Source of the DNA: Elusimicrobiales bacterium
GTDB taxonomy: Bacteria; Elusimicrobiota; Elusimicrobia; Elusimicrobiales; UBA9959
Direction of reading: 5' to 3'
Length of the DNA stretch: 44,552 nt
Assembly: GCA_049972095.1 (NCBI GenBank)
Contig: JBMFKQ010000005.1
Location: 17,431-61,982 of the forward strand
The position numbers and the translations under genes were made by a program. How positions within the stretch are numbered: position 1 is the first letter of the stretch; every line of letters begins with the position of its first letter. The notes under the pieces were generated by a model that had not been told where the DNA came from, searched no databases, and saw only the letters and a list, made by a program, of their open reading frames with translations. Below, one piece after another: positions 19 through 44,552 of the stretch.

Positions 19-1056
19 ATGGAAAAAGAGAATAAAGATTTTGAAGAACTTGTGAGAGATCTTAACTCACTTCTTGAGAAAATTCCTGATATGATAGGTA
101 AGCCAGAAGAGCAGATTTCTAAAATGGATGAGAAAGATCAAGAAGCTGATAATAAATCTGATACAGAGTTGCAGAATTTAAGCGATATTGAAAATTTTAT
201 AATAACACCACAAGCATCTGATGTTAAAAATAAGGATGTTGATAGCAGTGCTAAGAAATTAGAAGATAATCAGCAGGTTTTAGATATTGATAATGAAGAA
301 GAGAAAAAGAAGGATGATGTCAATGAGACTTTAAATCATAGTGCTGATGACATAAAACTTGAGCCTCCTGATGAGATGGTTATCCATAATGAAGATATAA
401 ATCAGTTCTCAGATGAGATTAAAACTGATATTCAAGTAGAGCAAAGCCCTGTTACATCACCATCCAGTTATGACATTGAATTAGATAAATCTGAAGAAAA
501 GGATAAAGATGAAAAGAGTTTTGAAATATTAGACTCACACCAGAAAGAAAAAGAATTTAGCGTTGATATTCAAAGTAGTTTTTTTGAAGAAGAACATCAA
601 ATACAGTGCACAGAAAAACAAAAGGATTTCAATAACCTTTTACTTTCAGATGAGTTGAAAGATATAATTTATGCCAAAAAACCCTCTGATGTTAGCGATG
701 AAAGGGTTAAGAAGATAGGCTTAGTATGTTCAATTAATGGTGAGACTGTGCTTAAGCACTTTTTAAGATATTTGGATGAGATATGTTTTTCATCAAAGAA
801 TAAAAAAATGTTTGTTGAAAGAAGTTTTGTTTTATTTTATGATGAAAACTTTTCAGTTGAGAACTTAATTATAAATGCTGGGAATGAAAAGGTTAATGCA
901 GTTGTGCTCATTGGTGAGATTCCTGTTGATAAAGTCTATGAGATTAAAAACGCTGTGTCTCAAGCAGGCTATATCTTCTTTTCGTTTAGCATGAAGAATC
1001 TTTCAAGATCCGAGGTTATTGATTTTGTTCTTGATTTAATTGCGGGAAGTGTATGA
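19..1056 (+). CDS. Hypothetical protein: long acidic low-complexity N-terminal region plus ~115-aa alpha/beta C-terminal domain shared with the next gene
   Basis: 345-aa ORF; in-frame TAA at 7-9 fixes the start; D/E-rich to about residue 230; ATGA overlap with the next gene. Confidence 0.85.
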   Translation: MEKENKDFEELVRDLNSLLEKIPDMIGKPEEQISKMDEKDQEADNKSDTELQNLSDIENFIITPQASDVKNKDVDSSAKKLEDNQQVLDIDNEEEKKKDDVNETLNHSADDIKLEPPDEMVIHNEDINQFSDEIKTDIQVEQSPVTSPSSYDIELDKSEEKDKDEKSFEILDSHQKEKEFSVDIQSSFFEEEHQIQCTEKQKDFNNLLLSDELKDIIYAKKPSDVSDERVKKIGLVCSINGETVLKHFLRYLDEICFSSKNKKMFVERSFVLFYDENFSVENLIINAGNEKVNAVVLIGEIPVDKVYEIKNAVSQAGYIFFSFSMKNLSRSEVIDFVLDLIAGSV

Positions 1057-2753
1057 TAGGAAAGTGGGAGATAAGAAAGATTGGTTCAAAAAAGGCACTT
1101 CTGCTTAAGGGAGATTTCAAGGATATTGTAAATATAATCAAGAAGATTGGACCTGTGCTTTCAAGACCTGAAAGGCTTTTGAAAGGGGATTATAATTTCA
1201 TAATGTATATACTTGAATCTAATGATTTAACTGAGGAAAAAATAAAAAAAGCAATAGAGAACATCACCTCAAAAATTACAGAGAAAAAACAGAAGGTCCT
1301 TGAGAAGAAAGAAGATATAAAAGATTTATCTAAGGACAAAGAGGTTGAAATACCAATGCCTGATTTTGAGGTTAAGCTTGAAACTAAAGAGGAGAAAAAA
1401 GAAGAATCTATAATAATACCTAAAGGTGGTCCTGTAACTCCAAAGAGAATTTCCGAAGACTCTGTAGATAAAAAAGATGGGAAAAAAACTGAGCAAAAGC
1501 CTGATCATAAGAAACTAACACCTCCTCCATCACCAAAGCTTTCCCAAAGAAGCATAGATAGACTCAAAATGCGCTGGTCAATAGAGCTTCCATTAAACCC
1601 AACATTGAGCTTTCAGACGCTAATCACTGGTTCTCATAATAGATTTGCTCATGCCGCAAGCATGGCAGTAGTTGAAAATCCTGGTGTTATGTATAATCCC
1701 ATACTGATATGGGGGCCGATAGGGAGTGGAAAATCTCATTTCATACACTCAATGTCTTATGGACTTTCATCAACAATGGGACAGAAGAATATATTTGTTA
1801 CAAATGGGGTTAAGTTTTCTGTTGGTGTCACGCTTGCAATAAAAGAAGGTTTCATAGACAGCATTGCTCAGCTAATAGAGAACTCAAAGGTTATTATAGT
1901 TGATGACATTCATCTTATGCTCATAAACAAGGAGAATAAGGCTTTTATAAGCAAGGTTATATCTGATTGTATGAGCTCAAACAAGCAGGTTATTTTCTCA
2001 TCACTCTTCTCGCCAAAAGAGCTTGAGCCTCTTGAATCAATGCTTGGTATAGAAATATCTCAGGGGTGGATGGTGGATATAAAGCCACCAAATCCTCAAA
2101 CATACAAAGCCATACTCAATCAAATACTTACAAATATGGATGTAAAACTTAGTGAGGATGATATAAAAAGGTTTTTTGTTGATAGATCTTTGGATTTTAG
2201 AACACTAACGGTGATGCTTTTTAGAATGAAGAAACTTGAAAAATACATCTCATCACAGAAACAATCTTTGTTGCATCAAGATCTGCTTGATATGCTTTTT
2301 GGTGATAATGATGATCTTTCTTCACCAACTCCCCAGGAAATAAAAGATGTAAACAGATATGCATCATCACCTGACAGCTTTTATAAATGGGGGATCTTCT
2401 ATCCAAAGGGCATGAAGGATTATGTTAACTATGTTCTTTACAAACTTTCGCAAACCTTTTCAAGCATAATTAAAACAAGCTTAAGCTGGTATCTCGTTTT
2501 TGAGGAGGAATATGATCCTGAGGAGGTCTATGGTGTAGCTTTCAAGATTGGGAACACTGTTCTTGAAAAAAATGTCAATGGCATAATAGTCATAGGACCC
2601 CAACCAACAAGTCCACTTGCTGCCAGGGAAGCTGAATTTAGACATCTCGTTGACAAGATAGTTGAGAGTTTAAATGTTAGAAGTGCCTGGATATATTCAT
2701 CACGCCTTAAGTCCCAGTCCAACTACCTCAATGCACTTCTTGATCTGATATGA
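1053..2753 (+). CDS. DnaA-like AAA+ ATPase-domain protein without DnaA domain IV (not a canonical initiator)
   Basis: LNPTLSFQTLITGSHNRFAHAASMAVVENPGVMYNPILIWGPIGSGKSH matches the DnaA domain III start and Walker A; Walker B VIIVDDIH; no recognisable domain IV helix-turn-helix. Confidence 0.85.
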   Translation: MIGKWEIRKIGSKKALLLKGDFKDIVNIIKKIGPVLSRPERLLKGDYNFIMYILESNDLTEEKIKKAIENITSKITEKKQKVLEKKEDIKDLSKDKEVEIPMPDFEVKLETKEEKKEESIIIPKGGPVTPKRISEDSVDKKDGKKTEQKPDHKKLTPPPSPKLSQRSIDRLKMRWSIELPLNPTLSFQTLITGSHNRFAHAASMAVVENPGVMYNPILIWGPIGSGKSHFIHSMSYGLSSTMGQKNIFVTNGVKFSVGVTLAIKEGFIDSIAQLIENSKVIIVDDIHLMLINKENKAFISKVISDCMSSNKQVIFSSLFSPKELEPLESMLGIEISQGWMVDIKPPNPQTYKAILNQILTNMDVKLSEDDIKRFFVDRSLDFRTLTVMLFRMKKLEKYISSQKQSLLHQDLLDMLFGDNDDLSSPTPQEIKDVNRYASSPDSFYKWGIFYPKGMKDYVNYVLYKLSQTFSSIIKTSLSWYLVFEEEYDPEEVYGVAFKIGNTVLEKNVNGIIVIGPQPTSPLAAREAEFRHLVDKIVESLNVRSAWIYSSRLKSQSNYLNALLDLI

Positions 2754-4582
2754 TTGCTCCTCTATTCATCTTTTTATCAGCATTTTTTGTTTCTTTCTGG
2801 TATATTAGATTCAGATATGTGCTTCCACTTCACAAGAAGATTGAAGAGTATAATAAATTCTACTTATCATTTGAAGATTTTATAGAATCTATCCTTTCTA
2901 CTGCAGTTTCATTCCGTAAAGAAGATTACCTCAATCTTACAAACATTATCTTAATAAAGTTTAACAACATAGTATCCGATGCATCTTTTTATATTGTTGA
3001 GAAAAAAGAGGATAATGTAAGCATTATAGGCGCTATAAACAAGGGTAATTTCAATATGGATCCTTCAAAGATTAAAGACATAGTTTTTTCTGCAAAGGAT
3101 GAGCTTTCATACATAGAAAGAGCTGATATATTTGAAGAGGAAAAAAAACATTTTGCTGTGATATCTCTCAATGATGGATTAAAGAATATCAGTATTGTTG
3201 CTATGATAAATGAAGAGGATAAGGATACTGTTTTAAGGTATTTCAGATTTATACTTCTATTCTTGAAAACCTTTCTTAATTATTACACTGAGATAGAAGA
3301 AAGAAACAGAGAGATAAAAAAGCTTAAGGCAGAGCTTGATGGTATAATTAAGGAGCTTGAAAGTCAGGAAACAAAGCTTATAAAAAAGCACAAGGAGGCA
3401 AGGCTTATATATGAAGGCATATCCACAATAAGCTGTGAGCTTGAAAATCCTGCCTCTTATCTCATAGAGCTTATTTACAGAACTATTACGCCTCAATTTG
3501 TGGTTTGCTTCGGTTATTCCAATGAGGATAATAAACTTGTAGCTCTTTTCACACAGCCATCTAACATCCAGATTGACTATAGAGTGGATCTCACAGAAGA
3601 GCAATCACCACTTACAAAGGTGTTTATCAATGCAAATCCTATGTATATAACTGACGAGCAAGATATAAGATCAATACCTTTTGTAAAAGACACAAATAGT
3701 CAGACTCTGCTTATTTTCCCTGTTATGACAGCAAAGAGAAAATATGGAGTAATAGTCATTTCTGATAGTAAAAAGAGAAAATATTCTCAGGATGATTTAT
3801 CACTGATTGAGATATATTCAAAACAGCTTGCACTCTTTATGAATCTTTCAGATCTATATTCAAAGATATCACAATATGCTATAAAGATGGAGAGTCTAAA
3901 TAAGATAAAGGATGAGTTTATAGCATCGGTAAACCATGAGATCAAAACACCTCTTACAACCATAAAAGGATTTCTTTCTGTTCTTCTTAATGGTGATGCG
4001 GGTTCTCTTAATGACCAGCAAATAGCATTTCTTAACCTTGTTGATCAAGCAACAAATAGATTAATAAATATAGTTACAAATCTTCTTGATATATCAAAGC
4101 TCACTTCAAAAGCAGATATAGAGATGGAAAAAGCAGATCTCATACAGACCATAAATACCCTTTTGCCATCGTTAAGAATGAAGGCATACTCTAAGAATAT
4201 AAGAATCATTTTTAATTCTGAGATTAAAAATGCTATGATTAAGATGGATAAACACTGGATAGCTCAGGTTATAAACAATCTTGTAGATAATGCAATAAAA
4301 TATTCCATGCCGTCAAGTGTTGTAAATATATCTGTTTATGATAAAGGAGATGTTGTGATTTTTTGTGTTGAGGATCATGGATATGGAATAGATGAAGAGG
4401 ATAAAAAATTCATATTTGAGAAATTTTTTAGAGGTAAGAATGTTTCTCTTAATACACAAGGCAGTGGGCTTGGTCTTGCAATAACCAAAACAATAATAGA
4501 AAAACACAATGGAAAGGTATGGTTTGAGTCAGAAAAAGGAAAGGGGAGCAAGTTTTATTTTGCCCTAAAAAAAACAGAATAA
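2750..4582 (+). CDS. Membrane-anchored GAF-domain sensor histidine kinase (HisKA + HATPase_c)
   Basis: N-terminal hydrophobic helix; GAF-like LLIFPV...YGVIVI...YSQDDLSLI; H-box NHEIKTPLTTIKG; N-box NLVDNAIKYS; G1 DHGYGI; F IFEKFFR; G2 GSGLGLAI. Confidence 0.93.
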   Translation: MIAPLFIFLSAFFVSFWYIRFRYVLPLHKKIEEYNKFYLSFEDFIESILSTAVSFRKEDYLNLTNIILIKFNNIVSDASFYIVEKKEDNVSIIGAINKGNFNMDPSKIKDIVFSAKDELSYIERADIFEEEKKHFAVISLNDGLKNISIVAMINEEDKDTVLRYFRFILLFLKTFLNYYTEIEERNREIKKLKAELDGIIKELESQETKLIKKHKEARLIYEGISTISCELENPASYLIELIYRTITPQFVVCFGYSNEDNKLVALFTQPSNIQIDYRVDLTEEQSPLTKVFINANPMYITDEQDIRSIPFVKDTNSQTLLIFPVMTAKRKYGVIVISDSKKRKYSQDDLSLIEIYSKQLALFMNLSDLYSKISQYAIKMESLNKIKDEFIASVNHEIKTPLTTIKGFLSVLLNGDAGSLNDQQIAFLNLVDQATNRLINIVTNLLDISKLTSKADIEMEKADLIQTINTLLPSLRMKAYSKNIRIIFNSEIKNAMIKMDKHWIAQVINNLVDNAIKYSMPSSVVNISVYDKGDVVIFCVEDHGYGIDEEDKKFIFEKFFRGKNVSLNTQGSGLGLAITKTIIEKHNGKVWFESEKGKGSKFYFALKKTE

Positions 4583-20703: not shown

Positions 20704-22530
20704 TTAGTCGTCCTCACCCTGCCAGATTTTTCCATTTTCACAGAAGCGTTTTTTAACTGTTGATGGTGAGCCGAAAAAAGGCGTTGATCTTCTTCCTTCA
20801 GTGATATCAGTATTTCCGCTTCTATAAGATGCTATGTAGTTAGCAAGATTTAGTTGAATTCGGTTACAGAGGAATCCTTCTTTCATACACATAAAGTATC
20901 TTATGCCATCTGCTGACTCAACTTTTCTAACAGAACAGGGAGGATTTTCAAGCACATCCTCAGGACAGTTTGTAGCTTTTAAAAGCCATAGATACTCTTG
21001 TTCTGTTATCTCTTCGTAGCCAAGTTTTTCAAGCTCTTTCTTTTTTAAGTTAAAATCAGATATTTTTTTGTCTACAGTAGAGGTTAATGTAGAGGATGGT
21101 GGGGTTTCATGAGGGAAAAACCAGTTCTTTGTTTTTGTTTTTTCATACTCATAATAGCATTTTAGACCTTCGTATGTAAGAAGTCCACTCTTGTCGAATA
21201 TTGGATCTGAGTTTCTGTCCTTTACTACAAATATATCTCGAGGATCAGATGCTGTTTTTTCAATCTCTTTAATAAATCTTTGTGATACATACTTTATGTA
21301 TAAGTTGTAGCCCTGATAGGTTATTCTCATATCATGATTGTTTTGAGGATTTGTCCATATTATATTTGCATAGCCTGGATATTTTTCTGAAAGATACCTT
21401 ATTGCTCCATTTCTTTCTGCAAGCTTTACTGTCATAAAAAGTTTTTTTTCAGCCGGCAGGAGCATCACTTTCTCTTTTTCAACAAAACCTCTGATTTTAA
21501 GATCATTTAAAATATCATTATCACTCATCGCAGTCATTTTCAGCTCATCTATCTTATCCTCAAGTTTTTTTGATGGTTTAATTGTATTCATCTTTGAATA
21601 TATCTCAAGCGCAGTTAAATTATCTTTACTTTTTTCAAGAGCATCAGCATATACACTAAGAAGTTCAAAATCGTGTGTATCATCTTTGACAATTTCTTTA
21701 TAATATTTAATGGCTTGTGAATAGTTTGCTGTGTGGTATAGTGAGTCTGCAATAATCCTTATTATTTCATTGTTAGGTTTTTTCACAATAGATATGTTTT
21801 TAACAATCTCATCATATCTTTTGTTTTTGTATAAAATCTTAATATAATCAACATAAACAGACTGTGTATGTTGTTTTCTCATCTTCATACACCCTTTAAT
21901 CTTTTCAAGTGCTATTACTGGGTCTTTCTCAGTTTGGTAAGAGGATATACATTTAATATAGCTATCTTTTTCTTCCTTGCTTTTCCTTTTCTTCAATGCT
22001 TCATTTAGTTTTCCTATCCTGTTTTCTATAAATGTTTTTTTGCCTATTATAAAATTCTCATTTGAGCTTTTAAGTATATCCAGTGCTTTTGTATAGTATC
22101 TAATAGCCTTGTCAGGATCAGTAGCTTCAAATATTTCAGCAGCTTTAAGATTAGCATGAAAGTTTTGAGAGTCAATGCTAATGGCAAATTCAATCTCAGT
22201 TTTTGCAAGATCTTTTCTTTTTTTTGAAAGATATATATCCGCAAACTCAATATGAGGATAAACAGAGAATGGATTTTTTACCTTTGCCTTTGAGCAGGAT
22301 ATGATGGCAAGATCTGTCTTTGCATTGAGATTATTTATTCTGCATAAACACAGATAACCTACAAACTTATCCTCAGCAGCAAGTTTTGAGCATTGTGATA
22401 CAAGATTATTTGTTATATCTGATTTTTCCTCAATTGAAACTATGCACGATATATTCTCCTCATCGCTTTTATTTGTATCCACGCATCCCCATAAAGTCTT
22501 AAAGCTTAACAGAAGTAATAGAATCATCAT
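20704..22530 (-). CDS. Exported TPR-repeat protein with unassigned Cys-rich C-terminal domain (possible lipoprotein)
   Basis: Hydrophobic N-terminus ending LWGC; TPR-like helices (KAIRYYTKAL, ADSLYHTANYSQAIKYYKE). Confidence 0.75.
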   Translation of the reverse strand: MMILLLLLSFKTLWGCVDTNKSDEENISCIVSIEEKSDITNNLVSQCSKLAAEDKFVGYLCLCRINNLNAKTDLAIISCSKAKVKNPFSVYPHIEFADIYLSKKRKDLAKTEIEFAISIDSQNFHANLKAAEIFEATDPDKAIRYYTKALDILKSSNENFIIGKKTFIENRIGKLNEALKKRKSKEEKDSYIKCISSYQTEKDPVIALEKIKGCMKMRKQHTQSVYVDYIKILYKNKRYDEIVKNISIVKKPNNEIIRIIADSLYHTANYSQAIKYYKEIVKDDTHDFELLSVYADALEKSKDNLTALEIYSKMNTIKPSKKLEDKIDELKMTAMSDNDILNDLKIRGFVEKEKVMLLPAEKKLFMTVKLAERNGAIRYLSEKYPGYANIIWTNPQNNHDMRITYQGYNLYIKYVSQRFIKEIEKTASDPRDIFVVKDRNSDPIFDKSGLLTYEGLKCYYEYEKTKTKNWFFPHETPPSSTLTSTVDKKISDFNLKKKELEKLGYEEITEQEYLWLLKATNCPEDVLENPPCSVRKVESADGIRYFMCMKEGFLCNRIQLNLANYIASYRSGNTDITEGRRSTPFFGSPSTVKKRFCENGKIWQGEDD

Positions 22531-40537: not shown

Positions 40538-41074
40538 TTACCTCAAATCTTTTTCCGACATAAGAATTTTTACCACAGACTTTATTTCATTTAACTCCTC
40601 TATAATCCTTTCATTATCTCCACTATTAGATACATTTTTTTTCATAATATAGCTAACCTTATTCTCAAGCTCATTAACCCTGTCAACAAGATCATTGGGT
40701 AGCAAAACCTTTGAAGAGGCTGTTATAACATATCTGTAGAAGGTAATAAAGATAATTGCAGCTGATAATAGAAATGAAGCTACGCCCGCAAAGGTTATAT
40801 ACTCAAGCCCTGAAATAAGCCCTGCAAAGATGACTATGACTGATAGTATCATAAAAAAGATTAGTGTTTCCTTATTCTCACTCCATACAACATTGAATCT
40901 TGATAGGTTTTTTTTCACAATATCCGTATCAAAGGAATGTTTAACTAAGGAGGTTGCACGATCTTTTTGATAAGAATCCACTTTTTTATCATCAACAAAC
41001 ATCTTACTCTTTAAAAAATCCTTAGAGGTTTCTTCTTTAAGTTTATCTATTATCTCTTTAAGCTCATCACTCAT
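40538..41074 (-). CDS. Hypothetical two-TM membrane protein with short C-terminal coiled coils
   Basis: Hydrophobic hairpin LIFFMILSVIVIFAGL / ITFAGVASFLLSAAIIF; 8-nt overlap with the upstream gene. Confidence 0.8.
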   Translation of the reverse strand: MSDELKEIIDKLKEETSKDFLKSKMFVDDKKVDSYQKDRATSLVKHSFDTDIVKKNLSRFNVVWSENKETLIFFMILSVIVIFAGLISGLEYITFAGVASFLLSAAIIFITFYRYVITASSKVLLPNDLVDRVNELENKVSYIMKKNVSNSGDNERIIEELNEIKSVVKILMSEKDLR

Positions 41075-41804
41075 TGTCAGTCTCCATCTTCCCAGCTATG
41101 CCAAGTTTCTTGATTATCTCATCAACTCTCTTTTCTTTTTCCTCAACCTCCTTTCTTTTTGCATCAAGATCAGCTTTTATCTTTTCAAAAACCTTTATAA
41201 GCTCCTTTTTCTTCATATTATATTCTTCTTCAAGTCTTTTTTCTCTAATCTTAAGTTCATTTATCTTTCTTTCATACTCCATATTATATCTGTTTTTTAA
41301 AACATCAATCTCTCTGTTTTTTTCCTCCCATTGTAAAAGCATCTTTTCTTCTTTCTGCCTGAACTCCTCATAGAGCTGTTGTATTTTTTTTGAATATTCA
41401 CTCATAAGCCTTGCTTTCTGGCTTGAAAACTCCATTACTCTTGCCTCAAGCGATGCAGCCATATCCTCCATCTCTTTTTTAATTCTTAGATTCTCCTCTG
41501 TAAGCCTTTTCTTTTCCTCACTAAGTTCAACTATCTGGTTTTTAAGAGTATTAATCTCTTCCTCAAGTTTCTCAATCTTTATTCTATGTTTTTTTTCAAG
41601 CATCTTAACCCTTTCCTCAACCTCTTTTTCCTTTTCAACTATAAACTCATCTGCTGTTCTTAGAGAGTGTTCAAACTTCTCCATTATTGCAGTCATCTCA
41701 ACAGCAGCAACATTCTTCTCATCCCATAATCTTTTTGAAAAATCAATAAGCTTCTGATAAATCTCGTCTGGAATACACTTTATTTTCCTTATCTCCATAA
41801 TCAT
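41067..41804 (-). CDS. Hypothetical coiled-coil protein
   Basis: 245-aa E/K-rich helical ORF; ATGA overlap with the upstream gene. Confidence 0.82.
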   Translation of the reverse strand: MIMEIRKIKCIPDEIYQKLIDFSKRLWDEKNVAAVEMTAIMEKFEHSLRTADEFIVEKEKEVEERVKMLEKKHRIKIEKLEEEINTLKNQIVELSEEKKRLTEENLRIKKEMEDMAASLEARVMEFSSQKARLMSEYSKKIQQLYEEFRQKEEKMLLQWEEKNREIDVLKNRYNMEYERKINELKIREKRLEEEYNMKKKELIKVFEKIKADLDAKRKEVEEKEKRVDEIIKKLGIAGKMETDNE

Positions 41805-44552
41805 TTTTCTTTATATCTATTTATGGCTCTTATAAGCTCAAGTCTCAAATTCTCAAGCTCACTCTCTTTAACGGCGTACTCCTTTTCAAGCTTAATTCTC
41901 TCATCATTCAGCGCCTTTTCTTTTTCATAAAGCTCTTTTCTCTTCTGAGCTATCTCTTCCTCAAATCTTGTCATCTTATCAGAGATGATCTTCTCCATTT
42001 CAATTGTAGTTTTCTTGAGATTGACTATTATATTATCCTTTTCTGATATCTTTTCTTCAAGTGAGCTAATAAGATTTTTCAAACCTTCAATCTTCTTTTC
42101 ATACTCACTACAAACTCTGTTTCTTTCATTTATAACATTCTCTTCAATCTTCCCTTTGAGATAAATAATCTCATCATTGAGCCTTTTTTTCTCATCGTTG
42201 ATCATCTCAATTCTCTTATTAAGCTGTAAGATTTGTTTTTCAAGATCCTCTCTCTCCCCTTCAACATTCTTAATCCTTGCCTCATAGATTTCCTTAATCT
42301 TGCTAATCTCCATTTTAAGCTCTTCTCTTTCCTTTTTATATTCCTCAATCATTTTATTGTAAAGTTCAATCTCTTCTTCCTTTCTTGCAGCAAAAATCTT
42401 CATATCATTTTCATACTTCTTCTGAGATAATTCAAGTTCAGTCTTTAGCTTTACATACTCATCATAATAATTTTTTGCCTCCTCTCTAACTCTTAATAAC
42501 TCACCAGAAATAGATTCATTTAACCTTTTCATCTCCTCTATTCTTGTTTCATATTTTTTGCTGAGGGTCTTTTCAAGATTGTCAATAAGCTGAGCGTAGT
42601 TCTGCTCCACCTCTAAGGTCTTTGTATCAAGTAGCTTCTTGCCTTCGCTCTTTATTCTACTCATCTCAAACCTCAACTCACTATTTTCCTTAATAAGACT
42701 ATCAATCTCTATATTTTTCTCCTCAATTGCTTTTACAAGTCCATCAAGTGTTTTTTGAAACCTTTCAACCTCTTTTTTTGCAAGCTCATTCTTTGCAACA
42801 ATTATATCATTAAATTTTTTCTCCATATTCTCAATCTCATTCTTGTAATTATCAGAAATCTCTTTTATAGCCTTGTCAAGCTCAAGGGAAAACCTTCTTT
42901 TTTCCTGCTCAGATATAACCCTTAGCTTATTCTCCTTTTCTTCAAGTTCCTTTTTAATCTTTTCTAACTCTTGCTTTAAAAGAGATATCTCCTCATCCTT
43001 TCTTCTTATCTCTGAGTTCATTTCTGATCTAATTCTTTCTCTATTCTGATCTAAAAGGGATGAGTATTTATCTTCAATCTCTCTAATTCTTTTCTCATAT
43101 TCATCAACAATCTTGTCTTTTTGAGCCTCATAATCATTTGCTATCTGTTTAATCTTATCCTCAAAATCAGCAACAATCTTGTTTATCTTCTCTGCATCCT
43201 CTTTAATAATGTTAGCCCTTTCATTTGCAAGATTATCTATAAGCTTTTGATATTCTAACTCCTTCTTAGAAAATTCCAATACAATACCCTTGATTTTTTC
43301 TTCATATTCAAAGGATATTTTCTTATTCTCATCCTCTATCTCCTTTACCTTTTCATCTTTTGATAAAATTATATTCTCATACTCTTGCTTCATCTTTGCT
43401 ATGTCATTTTTTATCTTTTCCATTTCATTTTGATGTTTAATATTAAGCTCGTTTTCAATCTCATAAATCTTCTTCTCCTTTTCCTCAACAAGAGTTTTTA
43501 ACTTCTCAATCCTTGCTTCATAATCCTTCCTCAGCCTCTCAAGCAACTGTGAATGATAGTTTTTTTCATTTTCAAAATTTATTAAAAGCTCTGATATTTT
43601 TATTTCATATTCTTTTCTTACATCTTCAATTTTTTTATACATCTCCTCTTCGCTTGATTTTTTAAAAGTTTCAAATCTTTGTTGGAATGCTCTTAATATA
43701 TCCTCATACTCTTTTTCCTTTAAAGTATAATCTTTCTTAATCTCTGATATCTTATTTTCATACTCACTTCTTACATTAGCCACAGCCTCATTTACAGCAT
43801 CATTCATCCTCTTTATAAACTCCTGCTCTTTCTCTATCATCATCTTCCTGTTTTGCTCAATCTCAAAAGTTGATTCAGCTAATTTCGATTCAATCTCCTT
43901 CCTTAAACCTCTTTCATTTTCAAGTTGTGATAAAAGGATAGATATTTTCTCTTTAAAGTTTTCTTCAACCTTACTTTTTTCCTCAAGTATCCTTGATCTC
44001 CATAAATGTTCAAGATGAATAATTTTTTCTCTGTATTCATTTTCAATCTTTTCAAATTTTTCCCTAAAATTTTCCCTCTCAGCTGAAATATTCTTTTCAT
44101 ACTCTTTTTTAATTTTGTCAAGCTCATTTATTTGTTTTTTTAACTCTTCCTCTTTTTTAGATATAACCTCTACAATCTCTTTATCCTTCTCTTCCTTCAA
44201 GTTCTTCAAAGACTCCTTTAACTTTATAATCTCCTCTTCTCTTTCTCTAATCATCTTCTCAAAATTACCTAAAATATCTTTTATCTTTAGTTCATATCTC
44301 TCCGATATCTCCTTTTCTTTATCCTTAACCCTTTTATCAGCCTCAAGAATTATCCTTTTTATCTCAGACTCGTAATACTCTTTTTTATCTCTGTATTCAG
44401 ACTCAATAAGAGATATTTTATCTTCCAAATTACCTCTTATCTCTTCTATTTTCTTTTCATAAGAAAGAGCCATCCCCTTTTTATCATTTTCAAATCTCTC
44501 CTCTATCTCCTTTATCTTTTTTGTATAGTCTTCAATCATCTGTTTCTTCTCA
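41801..44552 (-). CDS. Very large coiled-coil protein, 5'-truncated by the window edge (>912 aa)
   Basis: Frame stays open from ATG 44539 to the window end (GAG AAG AAA CAG ATG); no Pro, E/K-rich, recurring (Y/F)E.(K/R)I motifs. Confidence 0.88.
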   Translation of the reverse strand, partial: EKKQMIEDYTKKIKEIEERFENDKKGMALSYEKKIEEIRGNLEDKISLIESEYRDKKEYYESEIKRIILEADKRVKDKEKEISERYELKIKDILGNFEKMIREREEEIIKLKESLKNLKEEKDKEIVEVISKKEEELKKQINELDKIKKEYEKNISAERENFREKFEKIENEYREKIIHLEHLWRSRILEEKSKVEENFKEKISILLSQLENERGLRKEIESKLAESTFEIEQNRKMMIEKEQEFIKRMNDAVNEAVANVRSEYENKISEIKKDYTLKEKEYEDILRAFQQRFETFKKSSEEEMYKKIEDVRKEYEIKISELLINFENEKNYHSQLLERLRKDYEARIEKLKTLVEEKEKKIYEIENELNIKHQNEMEKIKNDIAKMKQEYENIILSKDEKVKEIEDENKKISFEYEEKIKGIVLEFSKKELEYQKLIDNLANERANIIKEDAEKINKIVADFEDKIKQIANDYEAQKDKIVDEYEKRIREIEDKYSSLLDQNRERIRSEMNSEIRRKDEEISLLKQELEKIKKELEEKENKLRVISEQEKRRFSLELDKAIKEISDNYKNEIENMEKKFNDIIVAKNELAKKEVERFQKTLDGLVKAIEEKNIEIDSLIKENSELRFEMSRIKSEGKKLLDTKTLEVEQNYAQLIDNLEKTLSKKYETRIEEMKRLNESISGELLRVREEAKNYYDEYVKLKTELELSQKKYENDMKIFAARKEEEIELYNKMIEEYKKEREELKMEISKIKEIYEARIKNVEGEREDLEKQILQLNKRIEMINDEKKRLNDEIIYLKGKIEENVINERNRVCSEYEKKIEGLKNLISSLEEKISEKDNIIVNLKKTTIEMEKIISDKMTRFEEEIAQKRKELYEKEKALNDERIKLEKEYAVKESELENLRLELIRAINRYKEK

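Follow-up and report, generated by a model that had tools for sequence, protein, structure and literature searches.

In a 44,552-nucleotide stretch of DNA from an Elusimicrobiales bacterium (GenBank assembly GCA_049972095.1, contig JBMFKQ010000005.1, positions 17,431 to 61,982 of the forward strand; hereafter the window), two adjacent genes encode proteins that, as profile-profile comparison of their sequences shows, end in diverged copies of one domain. The copies occupy the C-terminal ~120-128 residues of an acidic and largely disordered protein of 345 amino acids (gene 1, 19..1056, + strand; hereafter the partner) and of a 566-amino-acid AAA+ ATPase derived from DnaA but lacking domain IV (gene 2, 1053..2753, + strand), and the models built for them show, as a predicted fold, a four-strand, four-helix Rossmann-like alpha/beta sandwich which, among solved structures, comes closest to the MID domains of Argonaute/PIWI proteins. 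The preferred account given here, to which we assign a probability of roughly 0.45, is that the domain serves as a protein-protein assembly module that links the ATPase to its partner, rather than as a binder of nucleic-acid 5' ends.

The kinship of the two domains (694..1053, + strand, aa 226-345 of gene 1; 2367..2750, + strand, aa 439-566 of gene 2) had been put forward in an earlier note on this DNA, which described a duplicated alpha/beta domain at both C-termini, and the proposal is now supported by profile-profile comparison and by predicted structures. The note had given the two open reading frames (ORFs) correctly, as 19-1056 (345 aa) and 1053-2753 (566 aa); the residues on which its alignment was anchored, G234 and G447, are both glycines, and its ungapped register contains 8 identities in 44 positions, at exactly K-2, G0, L15, L18, S24, F36, Y40 and D41. 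The second block that it matched begins at aa 290 of gene 1 (EKVNAVVLIGEIP) and at aa 506 of gene 2 (KNVNGIIVIGPQP), and the closing hexapeptides, FVLDLI at aa 336 and ALLDLI at aa 561, lie close to, or right at, the C-terminal ends. Raw identity does not exceed what chance gives: the best ungapped 44-mer between the two C-termini has 11 identities, a figure reached in 25 of 200 shuffles, and whole-protein BLASTP of gene 1 against gene 2 left the C-terminal match unreported. Scores from a substitution matrix, obtained by the pairwise alignment with shuffling that the note had named as a check, do beat the shuffles, with local alignment of the C-termini scoring 53 (shuffles 28.7+-5.0; 6 of 2000 reach the score) and semi-global alignment 47 (shuffles 12.8+-5.8; 1 of 2000 reaches it). 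The expectation that a hidden Markov model (HMM) of one domain would retrieve the other failed, in that, searched against this genome at E<=10, each model retrieves no gene but its own; at the same threshold, the partner-domain HMM matched 0 of the 150 ATPase representatives listed.

For the profile-profile comparison, orthologues of both genes were collected from 19 related genomes and later from more distant ones, and 137 further domain segments were taken from a search that covered 1.84 billion representatives exhaustively. As the alignments grew more diverse the hhalign signal rose, from P 0.0024 (18 vs 20 sequences) and P 0.0012 (23 vs 36) to E 7.4e-8 with a score of 46.1 (23 vs 173) and finally to E 1.6e-9 with a probability of 96.3 % over 116 columns (43 vs 173). 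Throughout, the register was the one drawn in the earlier note, from the glycine of strand 1 to the terminal LDLI, and in the profile alignment strands are matched to strands and helices to helices. In the 23 vs 173 comparison, column-shuffled profiles scored 11.2+-2.0 (maximum 17.4), none of 120 reaching the real 46.1, and the reversed template scored 14.7 (P 0.061). Among the unrelated hhalign controls, the N-terminal domain of gene 2 gave P 0.055 and 0.084 against the C-terminal domains, the N-terminus of the histidine kinase encoded by the next gene gave P 0.047 and 0.14, and 18 receiver domains of this genome gave P 0.38 and 0.015, out of register; all six kinds of control returned P 0.0077 or worse. 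The two domains are thus taken as homologous because hhalign reaches E 1.6e-9 over 116 columns while the controls are far weaker. That two unrelated small alpha/beta domains came by chance to share a common fold is very unlikely given a full-length match that strengthens with diversity when unrelated controls stay at P>=0.0077, and given that both domains are C-terminal, finish in the same LDLI and are encoded by adjacent genes. On the same hhalign values, the N-terminal domain of gene 2 was rejected as a further copy of the domain, and the unassigned N-terminal 250 residues of the kinase were rejected as a third copy.

AlphaFold2 models built from the two alignments (pLDDT 95.8 and 89.1; pTM 0.88 and 0.84) each consist of four strand-helix units in an identical order of elements. 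When both models were compared with 48,161 chains by VIA-align, MID domains occupied ranks 1-6 for one and 1-15 for the other, with 6kr6_A, 7yfq_A and 4p1z_A as top neighbours common to both. Foldseek searches of the Protein Data Bank (PDB) gave a like result, the gene 2 domain finding Argonaute MID first (MjAgo at E 1.1e-4; hAGO2 MID at TM 0.60) and the gene 1 domain having hAGO2 (E 3.3e-4) and MIWI MID (TM 0.67/0.70) on top, with lumazine synthase, PTS IIB and receivers ranked below. MID leads the other doubly wound folds by 1.5 to 3 Z units, a consistent margin though not an overwhelming one. Additionally, the ESM Atlas whole-protein model of gene 2 has prokaryotic Argonaute (pAgo) clusters among its structural neighbours (TM 0.67-0.68), and a feature search with gene 2 returned Piwi/ArgoMid clusters at 0.76-0.80, which are leads only; the ESM Atlas search with the partner's domain yielded no usable match. 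The earlier guess of a flavodoxin-like or half-binding-protein-like fold was a good one at the level of fold class, since LacI/binding-protein half-domains, lumazine synthase and receivers do appear in the fold lists, all of them below Argonaute MID. Its remark that the third strand ends in glycine rather than in a phospho-accepting aspartate also holds in the alignments and the models (G79 and G84), as does its description of the domain as unrecognised, there being 0 consistent Pfam families over 36 + 23 members.

The resemblance to MID is one of fold only. None of the 36 + 23 domain members matches any Pfam family, ArgoMid (PF16487) included, at E<=10; sequence-profile searches of the PDB with both domains gave nothing better than E 0.04; and hhalign against 101 short pAgos gave P 0.0077 and 0.05, values comparable to those of the unrelated controls, the short-pAgo profile having been seeded from only two Piwi matches in 401 Elusimicrobiota genomes and representing one pAgo clade. 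Both copies end their proteins, so that neither is followed by a PIWI domain, and PF02171 is unmatched in this genome and found in only 2 of the 401 genomes searched across the phylum. The 5'-phosphate pocket of Argonaute MID is basic and aromatic, Lys-rich and of the Tyr-Lys-Gln-Lys type. Among the 173 aligned sequences of the ATPase-borne domain no position reaches 70 % Lys/Arg, the net charge averages -1.8 (against -3.1 in the partner's domain), and the conserved Lys/Arg residues of the partner family (positions 11, 42 and 48) fall at the N-terminal edge of the sheet. The lack of a conserved basic column and the acidic average speak against a MID-type 5'-phosphate pocket, and, judging from these sequence features, the domain is probably not a 5'-phosphate binder.

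A side observation concerns the Piwi-domain genes themselves, which occur in 2/401 Elusimicrobiota genomes. At L042:1033-3415 (-), in a genome of family f2, a 465-aa short Argonaute follows a 341-aa ORF that presumably encodes a SIR2-type partner, and the two would be a short-pAgo defence pair.

The two copies of the domain differ in what they conserve. In domain numbering, the ATPase-borne copy keeps P20, Y56, G84-P85, F66, F98 and L106; P20, Y56 and G84-P85 are each present in 94-98 % of the 173 ATPase-domain sequences and, when placed by the order of secondary-structure elements, sit at the C-terminal end of each of strands 1-3, the usual ligand site of Rossmann-like domains; Y56 and G84-P85 correspond to Y487 and G515/P516 of gene 2. 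The partner family does not keep P20, Y56 and G84-P85, and conserves instead K42-P43, R48, F100 and D115. Common to both families is an aspartate of the last helix (aa 339 in gene 1, aa 564 in gene 2), which lies within the C-terminal motif (L/M)-D-L-(I/L/V); its position holds D or E in 100 % of the members of one family and in 96 % of those of the other.

The ATPase itself is recognizably a relative of DnaA. The only Pfam match of gene 2 is Bac_DnaA (PF00308), at aa 181-341 with E 9.7e-27 and profile positions 1-161 of 162, within a DnaA-type AAA+ module at 1593..2345 (+ strand, aa 181-431). Bac_DnaA_C has no match in gene 2, whose C-terminus is the alpha/beta domain, and the DnaA family model TIGR00362 covers only positions 52-353 of its 437; the view that the C-terminal domain stands in for DnaA domain IV, already taken in the earlier note, is thereby borne out. 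An alignment of gene 2 with this genome's DnaA and 96 representatives shows that Walker A (GxxGxGK[ST]), the DD of Walker B and the NRFAHA/PG..YNPL stretch have been kept. At box VII, a name that, like that of the arginine finger, comes from Escherichia coli DnaA, the 'ERLISRF' of this genome's DnaA aligns to 'ESMLGIEIS' in gene 2, and the family consensus, 'lEe.l.f.l', is without arginine, both box VII arginines having been replaced; the 'TSDRkP' of DnaA has likewise become 'tS.ypP'. The remainder of the ATPase consists of an N-terminal domain of ~80 aa (1053..1292, + strand, ~aa 1-80), which is specific to the ATPase family and kept in relatives, and a disordered linker, also a feature of the family. 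Among the 150 representatives listed, the N-terminal domain was matched in 48 and the AAA+ module in 120, the other 30 being short and fragment-like, and all 150 have the C-terminal domain as one stretch at or near the C-terminal end.

The true dnaA of this genome lies on another contig (G000:C36; L041:468-1856 (-)), in a 462-aa frame of which approximately the last quarter, covering domain IV, is masked as X in the assembly, and dciA lies near it (26.6 bits, cut-off 24). Because the box VII arginines are replaced in the 96 representatives and DnaA and DciA are encoded elsewhere, we infer that the gene 2 ATPase is no longer a replication initiator. A role as helicase loader of the DnaC/DnaI/IstB kind is rather unlikely with DciA present, which leaves no need for it; the loader family PF01695 scores 24.2 bits against gene 2 (cut-off 24.1), far below the DnaA match.

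Within the source assembly (1.44 Mb, 33 % G+C), genes 1 and 2 are the first two members of a set of three that run head to tail. The stop of gene 1 and the start of gene 2 overlap in ATGA at 1053-1056 (junction TGTATGATAGG), and the stop of gene 2 overlaps in the same way, at 2750-2753, with the start of gene 3 (2750..4582, + strand), whose product is a membrane-anchored histidine kinase of GAF-HisKA-HATPase architecture. The set is flanked by two aminotransferase genes, one divergent on the upstream side and one convergent on the downstream side, and genes 1-3 therefore look like one operon. The partner has no Pfam family at E<=1. Ahead of its long disordered stretch it carries a conserved, helix-like N-terminal motif (37..99, + strand, aa 7-27, DFEELVRDLNSLLEKIPDMIG), with the pattern, roughly, (D/E)-(I/F)-(D/E)-x-(I/L)-(L/V)-x-D-L-(N/D)-x-(I/L)-L; jackhmmer from aa 1-45 found the motif near the N-terminus in 31 of 52 gene-1-type ORFs from several families, many of the rest being truncated at locus ends. 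The motif may be a short docking peptide that ends the disordered arm. It aligned over 17 columns, at P 0.01, to a helix of the N-terminal domain of gene 2, a result that does not bear out a common N-terminal domain of the two proteins.

Across the 401 Elusimicrobiota genomes searched, the ATPase-borne domain is present in 245, nearly always once per genome, and by family it occurs in 46/46 genomes of f1, 118/118 of f2, 10/10 of f6, 43/48 of f8 and 0/89 of f16. The partner's domain is present in 97 of the 401, with 45/46 in f1, 10/10 in f6, 32/48 in f8 and 1/118, a weak match, in f2. The gene immediately upstream of the ATPase gene is a relative of gene 1 in 17 of 19 loci of the family and in 20 of 20 more distant loci, and a histidine kinase follows the ATPase gene in 15 of the 20 distant loci. 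In the sister family f2, no kinase was found downstream in 4 of the 4 loci inspected, and the partner profile found no partner gene in 10 loci examined. Genomes of f2 are small (1.1-2.6 Mb), and the linker of their ATPase runs from several hundred to >1,000 residues; in the orthologues L022, L027 and L030, the ATPase measures 985-1625 aa, the length being due to the disordered linker, in which all three share a short island resembling 'DDIFAAETICxFY'. The genes downstream of the f2 ATPase presumably encode, from their appearance by eye, a lipoprotein, ComM/YifB, DprA and TopA. Every named member of the domain family comes from Elusimicrobiota, the close relatives of the window proteins belonging to Elusimicrobiales and Elusimicrobia; of the ten most divergent representatives, five have organism names, all of them Elusimicrobia. 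The domain thus constitutes an uncatalogued family with a MID-like fold that is apparently restricted to the phylum.

Paralogous domains encoded by adjacent, translationally coupled genes commonly form heteromers, and it is because of this habit, the fixed gene adjacency (17/19 and 20/20 loci) and the ATGA overlaps that the two paralogous C-terminal domains are proposed to pair with each other. Pairing of this kind would tether the acidic, disordered partner, and perhaps, by way of it, the kinase, to a switch that depends on ATP and would no longer act as a replication initiator; where the partner gene is missing, as in f2, the domains of separate ATPase molecules would pair with one another. 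In addition, a small ligand may be held by the ATPase copy, through P20, Y56 and G84-P85 on the C-terminal edge of the sheet. Several observations weigh against an assembly role. The conserved residues of the partner are placed elsewhere by element order, leaving no obvious common surface except the last helix, while those of the ATPase copy, at the strand ends, fit a ligand-binding site as well. Moreover, the f2 ATPase keeps the domain in 118/118 genomes when the partner's domain is found, weakly, in 1/118, and the domain therefore has a role independent of the partner.

These same points lend some weight to a domain that senses ligands, in which the ATPase copy would use the C-terminal edge of its sheet, in the manner of MID in Argonautes, to bind a nucleotide, some other small phosphorylated molecule or the 5' end of a nucleic acid, and so control the ATP switch, with the partner's copy as a degenerate, non-binding decoy or competitor. 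Such an arrangement would account for the first rank of MID with both models, the clustering of P20, Y56 and G84-P85 (94-98 % of 173 sequences) at the ends of strands 1, 2 and 3, with the GP loop after strand 3 at what we take to be the position of the MID nucleotide-specificity loop, the lack of those residues in the partner's copy, and the retention of the domain in f2, where the partner was not found. We nevertheless regard it as rather unlikely, considering that the ATPase family has no conserved Lys/Arg column and a domain that is acidic on average, that a MID-type pocket would lack the PIWI domain that completes it, and that the profiles do not rise above noise against short pAgo MID (P 0.0077 and 0.05). 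Distinctly less credible is a degenerate pseudo-receiver by which both proteins, unphosphorylated, would dock on the neighbouring kinase; the two models show four strands where a receiver has five, a glycine occupies the site of the phospho-accepting aspartate, Pfam PF00072 is unmatched, the genome's own 18 receivers align poorly and out of register (P 0.38 and 0.015), MID scores 1.5-3 Z units higher, and the f2 ATPase keeps the domain in all 118 genomes with no adjacent kinase in the 4 f2 loci checked. A long shot, finally, is that the domain is a true if very distant offshoot of Argonaute MID that was moved onto a DnaA-derived ATP switch, in which case the ATPase would recognize, in place of DnaA boxes, a nucleotide or the end of a nucleic acid, tuned by the ATPase-less partner and the kinase, in a hitherto undescribed cell-cycle or nucleic-acid-sensing circuit maintained in single copy through much of Elusimicrobiota, reduced genomes included. 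Pairing of the two copies in an assembly remains the reading that we favour.

Elsewhere in the window, a run of three ORFs at its end (40538-44552, - strand), with lengths of 178, 245 and 912 aa, has no Pfam family at E<=1e-5 and adjoins polysaccharide-export genes (Wzz/GNVR, Poly_export); the run falls within the part of the window where GC skew is most negative (-0.37 to -0.49). Additionally, a 608-aa ORF at 20704-22530 (- strand) has as its sole match a sub-threshold TPR (30 bits, cut-off 42).

The ATPase core of DnaA is known mainly from the replication initiator itself and from the regulator Hda. In gene 2 the DNA-binding domain and the arginine finger are lost and a MID-like domain is gained, and the gene belongs to a fixed cassette with a partner that bears the same domain. 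The presence of the ATPase in 245/401 genomes, among them all 118 small genomes of f2, points to an undescribed housekeeping or cell-cycle role. A search of the full-text literature found no paper on this family or on a MID-like domain of a DnaA-type protein, and the system is an undescribed variant assembled from known kinds of parts. It would be a case of the MID fold outside Argonaute-type proteins, and it defines a family of ~125-residue domains that could be catalogued.

Among known systems, the closest in structure are the Argonaute MID domains (MIWI 4p1z, hAGO2 7c6b/3luc, Drosophila Piwi 6kr6, AfAgo 6t5t), with which the domain shares predicted fold and size; the four parallel strands alternating with four helices that mark the MID fold, over ~120-140 aa, are all found in the models. 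However, in Argonautes MID is followed by PIWI, whereas here the domain sits on an AAA+ ATPase or on a disordered protein; the Lys-rich 5'-phosphate pocket has no counterpart among the conserved columns of the ATPase-borne family; and a sequence relation goes undetected by Pfam, PDB profiles and hhalign to short pAgo. CheY-like receivers, LacI/periplasmic-binding-protein half-domains and lumazine synthase all score below MID, and receivers further differ in having a fifth strand and a phospho-accepting aspartate, both of which the domain lacks, and in showing no profile similarity to it within the same genome. In the case of the ATPase, the relation is to domain III of DnaA (PF00308), with a full-length AAA+ match and the Walker A/B and NRFAHA/PG..YNPL motifs in common; the differences are the missing domain IV, the replaced box VII arginines and TSDR, and another N-terminal domain, and gene 2 scores 136 bits against a cut-off of 343.9 for the DnaA family TIGR00362. 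Neither is it an Hda, since it scores 41.3 bits against a cut-off of 194.8 for TIGR03420 and has a C-terminal domain that Hda does not. Hda, HdaA and HdaB are nonetheless instructive as DnaA-related proteins that act as regulators rather than initiators, and HdaB of the Alphaproteobacteria is described in one report as a small protein related to DnaA, which binds HdaA and probably draws it away from DnaA by titration (PMC7049699). HdaB may serve as an analogue of the partner, which has no ATPase but has a domain in common with its neighbour.

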